Counted from the first letter of the stretch, positions 28,978 to 58,832 are shown. The stretch is DNA of 64,000 bases from an uncultured Nitrospirota bacterium (GCA_913051775.1 CAJXCL010000002.1:18307-82306), one strand, 5' to 3'. Notes: generated from the letters alone by a model not told the origin. A program made the numbers and translations.

Positions 28978-29138
28978 ATTAGACGGGATAACAGGATGAA
29001 TTAGAGGCTGGCATGATTTAAGCTTAGCTTTGTAAACGCTATTTATTATACAAAATAATCTTTTTAACACGTATTGAAAATATAATGAAGATAGAGCTTT
29101 TGATTAACAGATTAATATCCAGTTAATCCTGACAAATG
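28978..29138. repeat. MITE-like inverted-repeat element, family B
   Basis: Left end attagacgggataacaggatgaa. Right end atccagttaatcctgacaaatg is the reverse complement of a gacaggattaac-type terminus. The interior is AT-rich, about 115 bp. Confidence 0.55.
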
Positions 29139-29302
29139 ATTATATAAAATACGTTGCCGAATATATGAAATAGTGTACTAAGGCACTAAGGAAATTGGGG
29201 TCACATCTCGCCAATCAACAAAATTCAAACTTAATGTGGTTTGTTCTGAAAAATTAATTAACCGCAGAGTTCCCAAAGGTGAAGAATAATTTATGGAAGA
29301 AG

Positions 29303-30235
29303 TTAAAAATTAAAATGTTCTTGAACCGCTGTATAAATAGCTTCATCAGTCATTTCAGGCTTTTCAATATCCACTTCAATCCATTTTGTTGAAGAAACTT
29401 TTTTAAACCATGTTAATTGCCTTTTAGCAAAATTTCTTGTTTCTTTTTTTATATTTTCAACTGCTTTTTCCAATGCCAACTCTTTCCTCAAATACTGAAC
29501 GATCTCCTTATAACCTATACTCTGAAAAGGTTTTAACCGGTCTGAATACCCCCTGGCGAGAATAGCTTTGACTTCATTGACTAAACCTTTTTTGATCATC
29601 CTGTTAACACGCTCATTAATCCTTTGATACAACAAAGAGCGATCCATATTCAAAACAAGGTACAGAACATCATATTGATTTATCTCATGCTTCTCAGATG
29701 ATTGTAAAGATGACATAGGTTTCCCCGTCAGATAATAGACCTCTAAAGCCCTTTCGATCCGAAATTTATCAGCGGGATTAATTTTCTTTGCCGCATCGGG
29801 ATCTACTTTTAAAAGCTCATTATGCATGGCCGTGCACCCCTCTTTCTCTAAACTCTTTCTCAGGTTTTTCCTTACCTCAGGATCAGAAGGTGCAGCCATG
29901 GACAATCCTCTAGCAATAGCACTAATATATAAACCCGTGCCACCTGATACAATCGGTATTTTTCCTTTTGCGTGAAGTTTGTTGATTATTTTTCTCCCGT
30001 CTTTTTTAAATCTCCCTGCGTTATATTCTTCGTCAGGGTTTATTATGTTCGTCAAATGGTGAGGAATAGTTTTTCGATCTTTGATTGTAGGCTTTGCGGT
30101 TCCAATATCAAAATAACGATAAACCTGCATAGAGTCGGCACTGATAATCTCACTATTCAAGCGCTTTGCCAGATGGAATGATCTTTCAGATTTTCCTGTT
30201 GCTGTTGGTCCTGCGATTATTATTAAAGGAATCAT
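29303..30235 (-). CDS. miaA: tRNA dimethylallyltransferase
   Basis: N-terminal P-loop IIIAGPTATGKS followed by ISADSMQVYRYFDIGTAKPT. Confidence 0.9.
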   Translation of the reverse strand: MIPLIIIAGPTATGKSERSFHLAKRLNSEIISADSMQVYRYFDIGTAKPTIKDRKTIPHHLTNIINPDEEYNAGRFKKDGRKIINKLHAKGKIPIVSGGTGLYISAIARGLSMAAPSDPEVRKNLRKSLEKEGCTAMHNELLKVDPDAAKKINPADKFRIERALEVYYLTGKPMSSLQSSEKHEINQYDVLYLVLNMDRSLLYQRINERVNRMIKKGLVNEVKAILARGYSDRLKPFQSIGYKEIVQYLRKELALEKAVENIKKETRNFAKRQLTWFKKVSSTKWIEVDIEKPEMTDEAIYTAVQEHFNF

Positions 30236-31004
30236 AAATTTTCTGCATCTCTAAAGTATAGTTGCCATCATTATCATAGATATAAAGGGGGTCTAAAATT
30301 TTCGTCTTCATTTTTTGAAAATGCTCAGTTTTTTGTGGAGATTTTTTATTTACAACCCCATTTCCCCTACTTGCCAAGGAGGGGAAATGGGGGAGGTCTT
30401 CTTTTTTAACCCCCTCGATCAAAAACATCTTGGGATTGTTGTTTCTCTTTGAACAAATAAACCGGATTTTTTTTGGGATTAGTCCATGTTCTGCCATTGT
30501 ACGAACAAGTTCATCATATCGTTCAGGGAGATAAATCATAACCAGTTTTCCCTTATTGCAAAGCAGGTTGAAAGCGCTTTTAAGAAGCTCCGGCAAAGTA
30601 ATAAGAATTTCATGGCGCGCAATGGCTTTCTCTTCATTTGGATTCAGGCGCCCACTATTTAATTTTCGATAAGGGGGGTTGCTGACCACAATATCAAAAT
30701 ATCCATTTTTCAAAAATGATTTTGAGAACCTAATATCACCTTGAATCAACATTACCTGATTTTCAAGTCTGTTTTGGGCAATATTACGTCTGGCATGCTG
30801 CAACAAAGAATACTGGATATCAAGTCCTGCTATTTTAGATTTGGTCTTGCGTGACAGTAGCAAAGGGATAATGCCATTCCCTGTTCCAAAGTCAACAATT
30901 TTGTTCTCCTCCGTTGGAGATACAAAATCAGCTAATATAAAAGAATCTATCGAATACCGGTAACCGGCAACGCTCTGAAGAAGATATAATTGATTCATTT
31001 TCAT
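30186..31004 (-). CDS. tRNA (adenine-N6)-methyltransferase, TrmN6/YfiC-like SAM MTase
   Basis: YRYSIDSFILADF…VDFGTGNGIIPLLL…FDIVVSNPPY (NPPY motif). The C-terminal tail overlaps the miaA start by 50 nt. Confidence 0.7.
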   Translation of the reverse strand: MKMNQLYLLQSVAGYRYSIDSFILADFVSPTEENKIVDFGTGNGIIPLLLSRKTKSKIAGLDIQYSLLQHARRNIAQNRLENQVMLIQGDIRFSKSFLKNGYFDIVVSNPPYRKLNSGRLNPNEEKAIARHEILITLPELLKSAFNLLCNKGKLVMIYLPERYDELVRTMAEHGLIPKKIRFICSKRNNNPKMFLIEGVKKEDLPHFPSLASRGNGVVNKKSPQKTEHFQKMKTKILDPLYIYDNDGNYTLEMQKIYDSFNNNRRTNSNRKI

Positions 31005-31046
31005 CGAAAATCGCTTTTTGATTATTGTATTGTATTTTATAAAAAC

Positions 31047-31137
31047 TTTAGACAGGATTACAGGATAAACAAAAAAAGCAATGACACTGTCATTGCACTC
31101 TAAAAATAATATAAAAACAATGTCACAGGATTTAGAA
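31047..31137. repeat. MITE-like element family B, between the divergent MTase and coaE genes
   Basis: tttagacaggattacaggataaac, then the perfect palindrome gcaatgacactgtcattgc, then tgtcacaggatttagaa as a degenerate right end. Confidence 0.6.
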
Positions 31138-31184
31138 TTGTTGATGTTATATTTTTTGACCGTTCAGGAGGAGTAGTTTATATT

Positions 31185-56640: not shown

Positions 56641-56687
56641 TTTAACATTTATTGCTAACAGATAATCTTTCCTTTTAGGAGAATATT

Positions 56688-57698
56688 ATGGAGTTGAAGG
56701 TCGCTATTAATGGGTTCGGACGTATTGGAAGAAACATACTACGATCAGCTCTCGATGAAAAGAAGTTGGAAATTGTCGCTATAAATGATCTTGCAGACGC
56801 TAAAACTTTATCCCATTTACTAAAATATGATTCTGTACATGGTCGGCTGAATGCATCTGTCAGCGCAAAAAAAAATTCGTTAATAGTTAATGAAAAGGAT
56901 ATCAAGATTCTTTCGGAAAGAGATCCTGCCAATCTTCCCTGGAAGGAACTGGGAGTGGAATTAGTGGTTGAATCCACAGGGCTCTTTGTCGACAAGGCTA
57001 ATGTGTCAAAACACCTCAGTGCAGGAGCGAAAAGAGTAATCATTTCCGCTCCGGCAAAAGAACCTGATATCACAATTGTTTTAGGAGTTAATGAGGAAAA
57101 ATACGACCCTACAAAACACCATATTATTTCCAACGCCTCTTGCACTACAAATTGCCTGGCACCGATTGCCAAGGTTTTACTTGAAAATTTTGGAATTAAA
57201 AAAGGCCTGATGACAACTATCCATTCTTATACCAATGACCAAAGGATTCTGGACCTTCCACATAAAGATTTAAGAAGGGCGAGATCAGCGGCAGTATCAA
57301 TGATCCCAACCACAACAGGAGCCGCAAAAGCAGTCTCCCTTGTTTTACCGGAACTCAAAGGGAAAATGGACGGAATGGCTATACGGGTGCCAACGCCAAA
57401 TGTATCCTTAGTAGACCTAGTTGTGGAAGTCGAAAAAGACACCACCACTGAAGAGGTTAATAAAACTTTAAAATCTGCCGCAGAAGGGGAACTAAAAAAT
57501 ATATTGCAGTATTCTGAAGAACCACTGGTTTCTATTGATTTGAATGATAACTCGCATTCTTCCATTGTGGATGGTCTTTCCACCAGTGTTATCGAAAAAA
57601 ACATGGTAAAAGTACTGTCATGGTATGATAACGAATGGGCGTATTCCTGCCGCGTGAGAGACCTTGCCATGTTTATTGCTGAGAAGGGAGGTTTATAA
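56688..57698 (+). CDS. gap: Glyceraldehyde-3-phosphate dehydrogenase
   Basis: [16 protein letters not shown] and active site [12 protein letters not shown]. Confidence 0.95.
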
Positions 57699-57854
57699 GA
57701 GGGCTTTCATCATAATGCTGCTAAATGACAACAAAAAAATGCAAAATCACAAATTCCAAGCAACAAATATCAAATATTTCATTTTGAATTTATAAGATAA
57801 TAATATTTAAAATATATAGTGCAAACTTGTGGAAAAGATATAAGGATATCCTAA

Positions 57855-58637
57855 ATGAGAGGTTTATTGATTGCCGGAAACTGGAAAATGAACGGACTCA
57901 TAGGAGAGTCTGTTCAATTGATAAAAGAAATCCAACCAGCTAATAATGAAAAAATCGAAATAGTGCTTGCTCCCCCATTCACTGCCCTTCATGCTGTAAA
58001 CGCCTATCTGTCAAAGGATGATTCAGGACAAATAAATAATTTTTTTTTGGCAGCCCAGGATGTTTTTTGGGAAGAAAAAGGAGCTTACACCGGAGAAGTT
58101 TCTCCGGAAATGTTGGCAAATACTGGTTGTTATTATGTTATTATAGGCCATTCTGAAAGACGACAGTTTTTTCATGAAACAAACAAAACGGTTAATAAAA
58201 AAATTAAAGCTTCTTTAAAAGCAAATTTGCAATGCATCGTCTGTATAGGGGAAACTTTAGAGCAAAGAGAAAATGGCAATACATTTTCAATTATTGAGTC
58301 GCAAATTAAAGAAGGATTTGCTAATATATCATCCGAAGAGTTGGATAAGTGTATCATTGCCTACGAACCTGTCTGGGCAATCGGAACCGGAAAGACTGCC
58401 ACTCCTGAACAGGCTGAGGAGATACATCAATTCATCAGGAAAAAAATAGAGGAGATTTTCAACAAATTCTCCTCTGAAAAGATGAAAATCCTCTATGGCG
58501 GCAGTGTTAATCCGGGTAACGTGGAAGGGCTTCTTTCAAAAGAAGACATAGACGGTGCCCTTGTCGGTGGAGCCAGTTTAAAAGCAGAATCATTTAACAA
58601 AATTATTCAGGCAGGAGAAAATACAATCAACAATTAG
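57855..58637 (+). CDS. tpiA: Triosephosphate isomerase
   Basis: LIAGNWKMNG, …IGHSERR… and AYEPVWAIGTG. Confidence 0.95.
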   Translation: MRGLLIAGNWKMNGLIGESVQLIKEIQPANNEKIEIVLAPPFTALHAVNAYLSKDDSGQINNFFLAAQDVFWEEKGAYTGEVSPEMLANTGCYYVIIGHSERRQFFHETNKTVNKKIKASLKANLQCIVCIGETLEQRENGNTFSIIESQIKEGFANISSEELDKCIIAYEPVWAIGTGKTATPEQAEEIHQFIRKKIEEIFNKFSSEKMKILYGGSVNPGNVEGLLSKEDIDGALVGGASLKAESFNKIIQAGENTINN

Positions 58638-58732
58638 CGGTTAGCAATGAAAGTGTTTAGCGAGCGCATTCCCCGTATCTTACTAAGGGGAGCTTCAATA
58701 ATGTTATTCATTAACCACCTTCGGCGGGACTT

Positions 58733-58832
58733 TTTTAGACAAGATTAACGGGATTAACAAGATAAACGCAATGACATAGTCATTGCACTCCGAAATAAAT
58801 CCAGTCTATCCTGTTCATCCCGTCAAAAAAAA
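58733..58832. repeat. MITE-like element family B, between tpiA and secG
   Basis: Left ttttagacaagattaacgggattaacaagataaac (three 9-mer units). Core palindrome gcaatgacatagtcattgc, almost identical to the 31047 copy. Right ccagtctatcctgttcatcccgtc plus an A-run. Confidence 0.65.

Follow-up and report, generated by a model that had tools for sequence, protein, structure and literature searches.

Intergenic elements with inverted tandem-repeat arms as putative derivatives of a widespread GxxExxY nuclease cassette

Arm-bearing elements in the window

A 64,000-nt stretch of DNA from an uncultured Nitrospirota bacterium (GCA_913051775.1, CAJXCL010000002.1:18307-82306; the whole stretch is referred to below as the window) contains seven intergenic loci, labelled E1-E7, that were recognised by direct reading of the sequence between 28.9 and 58.9 kb. 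The genes beside them are miaA, a methyltransferase gene, coaE, purQ, purS, wcaJ, lipA, der, ispG, proS, tpiA and secG. All seven loci carry one or two arms of the same type, in which T(T/A)GAC is followed by two or three tandem units with the core (A/G)CAGGAT or a close variant of it (AAGAT, GGGAT, TGGAT). In other genomes, arms of this type bracket a single gene for a GxxExxY protein, a small predicted nuclease. We consider it reasonably probable (about 0.6) that the window elements are derivatives of this widespread, apparently selfish minimal nuclease cassette that lack an open reading frame (ORF), comparable to miniature inverted-repeat transposable elements (MITEs) or to REPINs (hairpin-forming doublets of repetitive extragenic palindromic (REP) sequences).

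The arms were sought with two patterns, allowing up to two mismatches in each. In the window, GACRGGATNACAGGAT gave 6 matches (0.11 expected from shuffled sequences) and GACRGGATNNACAGGAT gave 9 (0.08 expected), i.e., 15 matches against ~0.2 expected for both patterns together. All of these matches fall inside E1-E7; the rest of the 64 kb, including the 34 kb outside this region, is free of them. On its own, the 8-mer GGATWAAC occurs 9 times against 5.1 expected, which is not significant; the signal therefore lies in the tandem arrangement. The repeat unit consists of the 7-nt core and a linker of 1-2 nt, which results in a period of 8 or 9. The original prediction, made from the sequence of the window, had described a dispersed family of MITE-like elements with inverted terminal arms of tandem 9-mers. 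Such a family is indeed present (seven loci, four of them with a full pair), and its units are arranged in tandem, but they do not form a fixed 9-mer. Five full elements had been claimed; E1, E3, E6 and E7 are complete, while for the locus at 31047-31137 (E2) no right arm was recognisable on reading the sequence. The solo ends proposed near 32920 and 37221 correspond to E4 and E5, and the perfect palindromic cores (GCAATGACACTGTCATTGC, GCAATGACATAGTCATTGC and GCATCACCTGAGGTGATGC) are as described. E2 and E7 have a core in common, which implies that an ORF-less unit was copied within this lineage. The interior of E1 (~110 nt, AT-rich) contains no ORF. A generic inverted-repeat finder missed the elements, as their arms differ by indels.

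The prediction that all elements are intergenic also holds: each of the 11 arms is non-coding, in a window with a coding fraction of ~0.85. The spacers occupied are tandem, divergent and convergent, and the distances to gene starts and stops vary; E6 (ispG-proS) and E7 (tpiA-secG) are each located within a co-directional gene pair. Compared with the ACAGGAT-arm GxxExxY cassette, E1, E3, E6 and E7 possess both arms and E2, E4 and E5 one, and none of them has an ORF between the arms. The sequence of the arms thus assigns the window elements to this family, as ORF-less derivatives rather than full members.

Table 1. Arm-bearing elements of the window and their parts (positions counted from the first nucleotide of the window).
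Feature	Position	Strand	Sequence	Basis or remark
E1, complete inverted pair	28979-29136			
E1 left arm	28979-29002	+	TTAGACGGGATAACAGGATGAATT	Sequence reading, pattern GACRGGATNACAGGAT; nhmmer E 2.9e-5
E1 right arm	29115-29136	-	TTTGTCAGGATTAACTGGATAT (reverse complement)	Sequence reading, pattern GACRGGATNNACAGGAT
E2, left arm and core hairpin	31047-31096			
E2 left arm	31047-31071	+	TTTAGACAGGATTACAGGATAAAC	Sequence reading, pattern GACRGGATNACAGGAT; nhmmer E 5.5e-7
E2 core hairpin	31078-31096	strand-neutral	GCAATGACACTGTCATTGC	Terminator-like on the - strand (a T run follows there)
E3, complete inverted pair	31811-31911			
E3 left arm, degenerate	31811-31836	+	GACGAGATAACAAGAT	Sequence reading, pattern match
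E3 right arm, three units	31883-31911	-	GGCAGGATTAACAGGATGGACTGGAT	Sequence reading, pattern match
E4 solo arm	32921-32949	+	TTCAGACAGGATAACAGGATAAACAAGGT	26 nt upstream of purS; nhmmer E 1.2e-7
E5 solo arm	37219-37245	-	TAGACAGGATAACAGAATAAACAAGAT	Divergent lipA/der spacer; sequence reading, nhmmer, pattern match
E6, complete inverted pair	42708-42836			
E6 left arm	42708-42737	+	TTTGACGGAATATTCAGGATAAACTGGATG	Begins 22 nt past the ispG stop; pattern match
E6 core hairpin	42756-42774	strand-neutral	GCATCACCTGAGGTGATGC	Sequence reading
E6 right arm	42809-42836	-	TTTGACACGATTACAGGATTAACAAGAT (reverse complement)	Ends 7 nt before the proS ATG; pattern match
E7, complete inverted pair	58734-58828			
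E7 left arm, three units	58734-58767	+	TTTAGACAAGATTAACGGGATTAACAAGATAAAC	Sequence reading, pattern match
E7 core hairpin	58768-58786	strand-neutral	GCAATGACATAGTCATTGC	Same core as E2
E7 right arm, three units	58799-58828	-	TTTTGACGGGATGAACAGGATAGACTGGAT (reverse complement)	Sequence reading, pattern match

The right arm of E6 (region 42809-42845) leaves proS without an obvious Shine-Dalgarno sequence, and the initiation region would be situated in or beside the stem of the element. Beside E5 (~37150-37180), GGTCGCGGAGTTCGCCGAG resembles the CGCAGAG/CGCAAAG octamer arms that adjoin family arms in the Nitrospinota stretches L102, L110 and L125 (L-numbers are labels of the DNA stretches compared).

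The cassette with a GxxExxY gene between the arms

Arm pairs that are 430-615 nt apart hold an intact ORF of 123-131 aa, which matches TIGR04256 ("GxxExxY protein", E 1e-42). Intact cassettes were found in Desulfobacteraceae, Neomarinimicrobiota, Phycisphaerales and Lentisphaeraceae, and decayed (frameshifted or truncated) pieces of the GxxExxY ORF lie between arms in Scalindua, KSB1 and others. A complete cassette (~470-520 bp) comprises two inverted arms, each consisting of T(T/A)GAC and three ACAGGAT-core units at a spacing of 8-9 nt, and one gene, whose ORF begins ~45-75 nt in from one terminus and stops ~20-60 nt short of the other. The search for a full-length relative with the same ends, which had been proposed with an insertion sequence (IS) or transposase gene in mind, was thus successful, but the relative is this GxxExxY cassette.

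The association was also found in the reverse direction. A metagenome scan with an alignment of the cassette GxxExxY proteins gave 80 loci, 73 of them with at least 100 nt of flank on each side. A forward arm is present upstream in 68 of the 73 loci, a reverse arm downstream in 70 and both in 67 (92%; this figure holds for this clade only, the 80 loci being the best matches to queries from arm-flanked genes), compared with 9 of 555 control windows from the same contigs. Across the cassette loci, pairwise identity at codon position 3 is 0.395, i.e., near saturation. In the pattern-matched arms, the positions of core 2 that the pattern leaves free are A in 92 of 93 and G in 90 of 93 cases, and 92-97% of the cassette loci retain an arm within two mismatches of the motif. 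The combination of nearly saturated third codon positions with nearly invariant arm cores indicates purifying selection on the arms as a part of the cassette. Arm pairs up to 3 kb apart enclose only GxxExxY or non-coding DNA. A Pfam scan of 150 ORFs flanking arms revealed no transposase family, and neither a Y1_Tnp-type family (that of REP-associated tyrosine transposases, RAYTs) nor an integrase family is among the Pfam families listed for the arm neighbours. The genes adjoining arms across the matches are ordinary housekeeping genes, PDDEXK_3 being the sole unusual family.

The GxxExxY protein of the cassette (123 aa; TIGR04256, PF13366/PDDEXK_3) is predicted to have a Cas4/RecB-like PD-(D/E)XK fold. 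D66, E76 and K78, which make up the PD...ExK motif, are invariant in the proteins compared, and the AlphaFold (AF2) model (pLDDT 81.8) shows the order alpha-alpha-beta-beta-beta-alpha-beta-beta. The best Foldseek matches in the PDB, all of them modest (TM 0.4-0.57), are Cas4 SSO0001, the AddAB nuclease domain, lambda exonuclease, RecE and MGME1; no solved structure related by sequence and no matching defence-system family were found for GxxExxY. One query retrieved 17,477 cluster representatives at 50% identity (E up to 0.001), which makes GxxExxY a very large family, and many representatives are located on contigs of 0.5-1 kb. Proteins of 250-270 aa with two GxxExxY stretches (P0376-P0380 and others) represent tandem fusions or, alternatively, neighbouring cassettes joined by read-through. 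In the one classification found, PDDEXK_3/PF13366 is listed without a known function and with repeated transfer between the bacterial and archaeal domains, its clades being mixed (Steczkiewicz et al. 2012, PMC3424549). The literature found on GxxExxY, PDDEXK_3 or PF13366 reported nothing on function or flanks, the family being almost absent from the searchable literature, and a search for the arm sequence gave no match; the family-level association of arm and GxxExxY appears undescribed in the literature searched.

More distant GxxExxY genes have other arms. The gene in L065 (34% identical) is flanked by a perfect inverted repeat of another tandem motif, GATCACGAATCTCGCTAATCACGC (GATCACGAATC-type arms). 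A relative of the L065 protein with 80% identity (L224) has the same arm type, and one with 67% identity (L226) has a diverged type, CACGAAACACAC (CCCACGAAACACAC). In L068, a GxxExxY fragment lies between CACGGAG/CACAGAG octamer arms. Arm type tracks the protein clade, which fits cognate pairs of arm and protein.

Distribution and age of the elements

An exact 20-mer from the arm, AGACRGGATWACAGGATRAA, was scanned against one genome per species and matched in at least 120 genome stretches from more than 15 phyla; our estimate of the number expected by chance is ~9 for 596 Gb. The matches listed include Planctomycetota (among them Gemmataceae with 60-70% GC), Desulfobacterota, KSB1, Zixibacteria, Neomarinimicrobiota, Nitrospinota, Nitrospirota, Verrucomicrobiota, Kiritimatiellota, Lentisphaerota, Bacteroidota (Spirosoma), Calditrichota, Acidobacteriota, Chloroflexota, Spirochaetota, one bacterium of the candidate phyla radiation and, among the archaea, four metagenome-assembled genomes (MAGs) of Ca. 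Methanoperedens. In this set, a third core, CARGAT, which is outside the search pattern, is present in 96-109 of 124 arms. The outer flank, likewise beyond the pattern, is T-rich and then A-rich, mirrored on the opposite side, and for 57 of the 125 arms an inverted partner is present at a distance of up to 300 nt. Many of these arm matches are situated at contig ends, and several genomes possess many near-identical copies. Multi-copy ORF-less subfamilies occur, e.g., in KSB1 (at least five near-identical copies at contig ends) in Gemmataceae (a subfamily with GC hairpin cores) and in Desulfobacterales (a 323-nt non-coding type, see below). Conservation of this extent points to a real and old cross-phylum family rather than to a MITE specific to Nitrospinota. 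Viral contigs yielded one arm match and one distant GxxExxY gene; phages are thus not an obvious vector.

Several variants of the layout were noticed. A conserved non-coding insert of 323-329 nt lies between the arms in L042, L050, L059, L075, L090, L120 and L127 (Desulfobacterales-type MAGs) with different flanks; it keeps the 5' leader motif of the cassette, AATCCAGTAAATCAAA, without the ORF, and may represent cargo or an RNA gene. In Neomarinimicrobiota (L016 ~3376-3521, L045 ~2860-3010), the arm occurs in head-to-tail direct arrays with a period of ~37-40 nt rather than in inverted orientation. The Ca. Methanoperedens contig L046 carries, at 100-6500, an array of ~206-nt tandem units, each with ACGCAGAT octamer repeats; two of these units contain arm elements, and a group II intron fragment is present at 6638-6715. 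Finally, the motif GTAAYAGTTCA is found 9-22 nt outside ~10% of the arm termini, against a background of 1.3%, and is frequently present at both ends as an inverted pair (e.g., L013, L014, L018, L092, L096, L148, L163, L168, L182, L198); it might represent an extended terminus or a favoured target.

The organism of the window is an uncultured marine member of the Nitrospinota; ProS and LipA identical to those of the window are encoded in the MAGs HJN03241.1 and MDP7579992.1 and on TARA/JGI contigs. In the sister species L130 (LipA 88% identical, synteny kept), E3, E4 and E5 are absent and E2 is present but diverged; at the E3 site, the purQ-coaE spacer is 36 nt long versus 120 nt in the window. 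The elements thus differ in presence between species. L221 (LipA 97% identical) and L222 (91%) keep E2-E5 where their contigs cover the spacers (E5 is kept in both, E4 is present in L221), nine contigs of the same species (L001-L009) are collinear, and orthologous arms and the spacer around them diverge at a similar pace. The 8 kb to the right of the window contain no further arms and no gene for a 23S rRNA intervening-sequence protein (IVP). As the window copies share only the arms (E2 and E7 also the core), are fixed in relatives and have no GxxExxY gene within ~72 kb, they are probably old, inert relics. Any present-day effect would be incidental, e.g., stable hairpins in the ispG-proS and tpiA-secG transcripts.

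The spacer of L222 at the E5 site (394-667) contains an extra TGCGGTGAA unit. In L221 (~5610-5715; window equivalent 31966-32020), purQ is not called and ~100 nt are added within its 3' part, due to either a duplication or an assembly artefact. Two other palindromic features were seen in the window. The intergenic element at 11346-11462 consists of tandem 7-8-nt units of a different motif, with TTTACAG TAATCAG AGCTCAG TTGTCAG on one side and CTGACAGC ... CTGACATC on the opposite side. At 62422-62653, downstream of an aspS-like gene, ATTCGAA(A/T)-type units occur in both orientations and form several overlapping inverted repeats.

Competing explanations and possible mode of spread

With MITEs of the Correia, Nezha or ERIC type, the window elements share the small size (60-170 bp), the lack of coding capacity, the intergenic location, the copy number and the terminal inverted repeats; in addition, the family varies in presence between species and has a longer coding relative with the same ends. 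The elements thus behave as non-autonomous ones, as was originally predicted, but neither of the two other hallmarks of a MITE, target-site duplications (TSDs) and a transposase-encoding parent, was found: the coding relative encodes a 123-aa PD-(D/E)XK nuclease. Furthermore, the ends are arrays of a 7-nt core instead of a single terminal repeat, and the same ends occur across phyla and domains. A classical MITE, arisen by internal deletion of an IS with a DDE transposase that binds subterminal repeats, with GxxExxY as a frequent passenger, would account for the sub-repeats in the inverted arms, the small size, the many copies, the assembly breaks at copies and the presence/absence polymorphism. 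Nevertheless, we regard it as quite improbable, given that the 150 flanking ORFs include no transposase family, that no TSD is detectable in 144-145 arm pairs, and that arm pairs within 3 kb enclose nothing but GxxExxY or non-coding DNA.

The REPIN-RAYT system is similar in the hairpin-forming inverted doublets in intergenic DNA, in a protein gene bracketed by its cognate repeat and in the co-variation of repeat type with protein clade. However, the protein here is a PD-(D/E)XK nuclease and not an HUH/Y1 transposase, nor do the arms resemble REP palindromes with a GTAG head. RAYT genes are typically single-copy and vertically inherited, whereas the GxxExxY gene is multi-copy and horizontally spread. 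A single small selfish nuclease gene with patchy spread across taxa, ORF decay and a conserved flanking recognition sequence is also reminiscent of homing endonuclease genes. Homing, however, needs an allelic empty site, whereas the arm family is found in many unrelated contexts with proliferating ORF-less copies, and GxxExxY is not known to cleave DNA site-specifically.

The closest layout of the ORF-in-a-hairpin kind is that of the intervening sequences (IVS) in 23S rRNA genes of Leptospira and Coxiella. These are ~430-760 nt long with ~28-bp terminal inverted repeats and one small ORF of unknown function (S23p, a four-helix bundle), are cut by RNase III, have ORF-less versions, and show a sporadic, horizontal distribution and an unexplained origin (PMC4990558). 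The arm family differs from them in its location between protein-coding genes instead of in rRNA helices, in its ORF (GxxExxY and not a four-helix bundle) and in the conservation of the arm cores as sequence, not as a stem. In the related Nitrospinota stretch L218 (330-790), inverted arms of tandem AAGTGA(A/C)CTAA units enclose an 89-aa 23S_rRNA_IVP (PF05635) ORF. They occupy the spacer that separates an oligopeptide-binding protein gene from its permease gene, a site that is empty in L217 and L130; the equivalent spacer of L217 (1366-1510) holds an arm-family-like stretch, GATGAACTGGATAAATC. The IVP ORF between tandem-unit arms hints at a common lifestyle of the two small-ORF families.

The RNase III-processed IVS (PMC4990558) invite an explanation at the level of RNA, in which the arms pair into a stem that acts as a processing or stability hairpin. 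E6 and E7, located within co-directional gene pairs, fold far better than shuffled sequences (z of -4.6 on the + and -5.5 on the - strand for E6, -5.3 and -6.5 for E7). In E3 and E7 the - strand is much the stabler, A.C mismatches on one strand being G.U on the other. Alternatively, a small RNA (sRNA) with GGA motifs could titrate a CsrA-type protein; ACAGGAUG resembles the CsrA-binding repeat of CsrB. Yet E1 folds weakly (z -1.9 on the + strand), as does E3, and E2 is without a long hairpin. At the gathering score no Rfam family, including rRNA, was found in the window, relaxed searches (E up to 1) gave only generic miRNA-precursor-like hairpins, and a tRNA search of the window found none. 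Moreover, when the two arms were compared in 67 cassettes, G.U-compatible mismatches (86) were no commoner than A.C mismatches (96; p = 0.5) and transversions numbered 372; the 7-nt cores match while the linkers often differ. The absence of a wobble bias and the dominance of transversions imply that the motif rather than complementarity is conserved, which argues for recognition of the DNA (or the RNA sequence) by a protein and not for a selected stem. The sequence of the cores is kept in genomes of both high and low GC content as well as in an archaeon, the motif is present on both strands of each element, and divergent and convergent spacers are occupied as well, so that an RNA-level role is unlikely. 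An sRNA of the CsrB/RsmZ type was rejected, there being no Rfam match and no called promoter, and the GGAT cores being paired with the opposite arm rather than exposed in loops.

If a protein recognises the arms, it might be a transcription factor or nucleoid protein of the host, with the arms as operators of the adjacent housekeeping genes. Tandem direct half-sites in inverted arrays, all intergenic and several near gene starts (E4 26 nt from purS, E5 40 nt from der, E6 ending 7 nt before proS), would be compatible with this, and so would the retention of E2 and E5 in related species. The 20-mer, however, is found beside unrelated genes in more than 15 phyla and an archaeon, the arms form the boundaries of the GxxExxY cassette, gene distance and spacer type vary, E3 and E4 are absent from the sister species that has the same genes, and orthologous arms are not more conserved than the spacer around them. 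The original prediction had named a regulator-binding site as the better explanation if the motif was confined to these positions, kept a constant distance to gene starts and lacked pairing of terminal repeats; this is not what was found, and we regard host operators as very unlikely. Even less can be said for the arms as transcription signals, i.e., outward promoters or, through the core hairpins, bidirectional terminators. E5 ends in GTCTATAAT 37 nt upstream of der, a 9/12 promoter-like site facing lipA is partly in the E5 arm, and the cores of E2 and E7 form terminator-like hairpins on the - strand. The promoter donation proposed earlier is nevertheless unsupported, as sigma-70-like sites in the window are no commoner than in shuffles (41 versus 41.4 expected) and none of the calls is for an arm itself. 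A terminator scan of the window revealed no enrichment, the palindrome of the family consensus is preceded by a T run and followed by an A run, opposite to the order in a terminator, and the terminator-like core of E2 is situated in a divergent promoter region. DnaA boxes, parS/dif, CIRCE, attC and CRISPR were rejected for a misfit of sequence or layout; for integron attC sites and gene cassettes, the arms flank the ORF on both sides, the neighbours are housekeeping genes and no integrase is among the Pfam families listed.

We therefore return to the derivation of the window elements from the nuclease cassette. The original suggestion that the tandem half-sites are bound by a protein appears the most plausible reading of the arms: they would be cis-acting arrays of binding sites, most probably for the cassette's own nuclease, which would bind them and drive copying. 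ORF-less arm pairs could then be copied in trans, like MITEs and REPINs, or be left behind after decay of the ORF, and the cassette would persist and spread as a selfish unit. Spread would have to proceed via host repair after cleavage, either by homing-like conversion between arm-bearing sites or by processing of an extruded cruciform; any such specific chemistry is much less certain than the derivation itself.

Several observations weigh against this derivation. The presence/absence differences anticipated by the original prediction exist towards the sister species but not among close relatives: L001-L009 and L221 show no polymorphism, the copies being fixed at 91-98% LipA identity with no sign of recent mobility. 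A GxxExxY gene or fragment is absent from the window and the next 8 kb to its right (~72 kb), and tblastn with two GxxExxY proteins found nothing better than E 0.85 in the window, so that no source acting in trans is shown. Direct-repeat matches of the kind that TSDs would produce are within the permutation null (k = 3-9, offsets 0-18, 144-145 arm pairs), and no TSD is visible by eye around the window elements. The only filled/empty pair among the loci compared is the Methanoperedens tandem array, the junction of which is not clean, and the ends cannot be defined from it. A lone RecB/Cas4-like nuclease is not known to act as a transposase, nor is any route known by which it would perform strand transfer; the nuclease might be a passenger, or the arms might serve it as operators alone. 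Co-inheritance alone would likewise produce the co-divergence of arm and protein, and the high frequency of flanking arms applies to one clade. Finally, the GxxExxY gene of L227 (1260-1930 of the Fusobacteria plasmid CP102406.1; 51% identical) is flanked by direct and not inverted repeats, which means that the inverted layout is not universal in the family; the direct repeat is ~55 nt long (…ATCAGTGAAAA…CAGATTTAATCCGTGTACCTAT).

More tentatively, GxxExxY may be the engine of a new, recombinase-free class of minimal mobile elements that extends across phyla and into archaea. The nuclease gene would lie between inverted arrays of its own cognate heptamer, and spread, e.g., by cleavage at arrays or cruciforms with subsequent host repair, would leave MITE-like ORF-less copies. 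Cassettes with the four-helix-bundle IVS protein between arms of other tandem units would be a sister class, which would explain the origin of rRNA IVS.

For the window genome alone, the significance is modest, since its copies appear to be old relics. For GxxExxY, a very large family of unknown function, the cassette suggests a concrete and testable role as a selfish hairpin element, and the conserved arms provide a defined DNA substrate for biochemistry. The finding also accounts for a class of repeats at which assemblies of environmental MAGs break, and it offers a link to the ORF-in-a-hairpin layout of 23S rRNA IVS, the origin of which has been open since the early 1990s.

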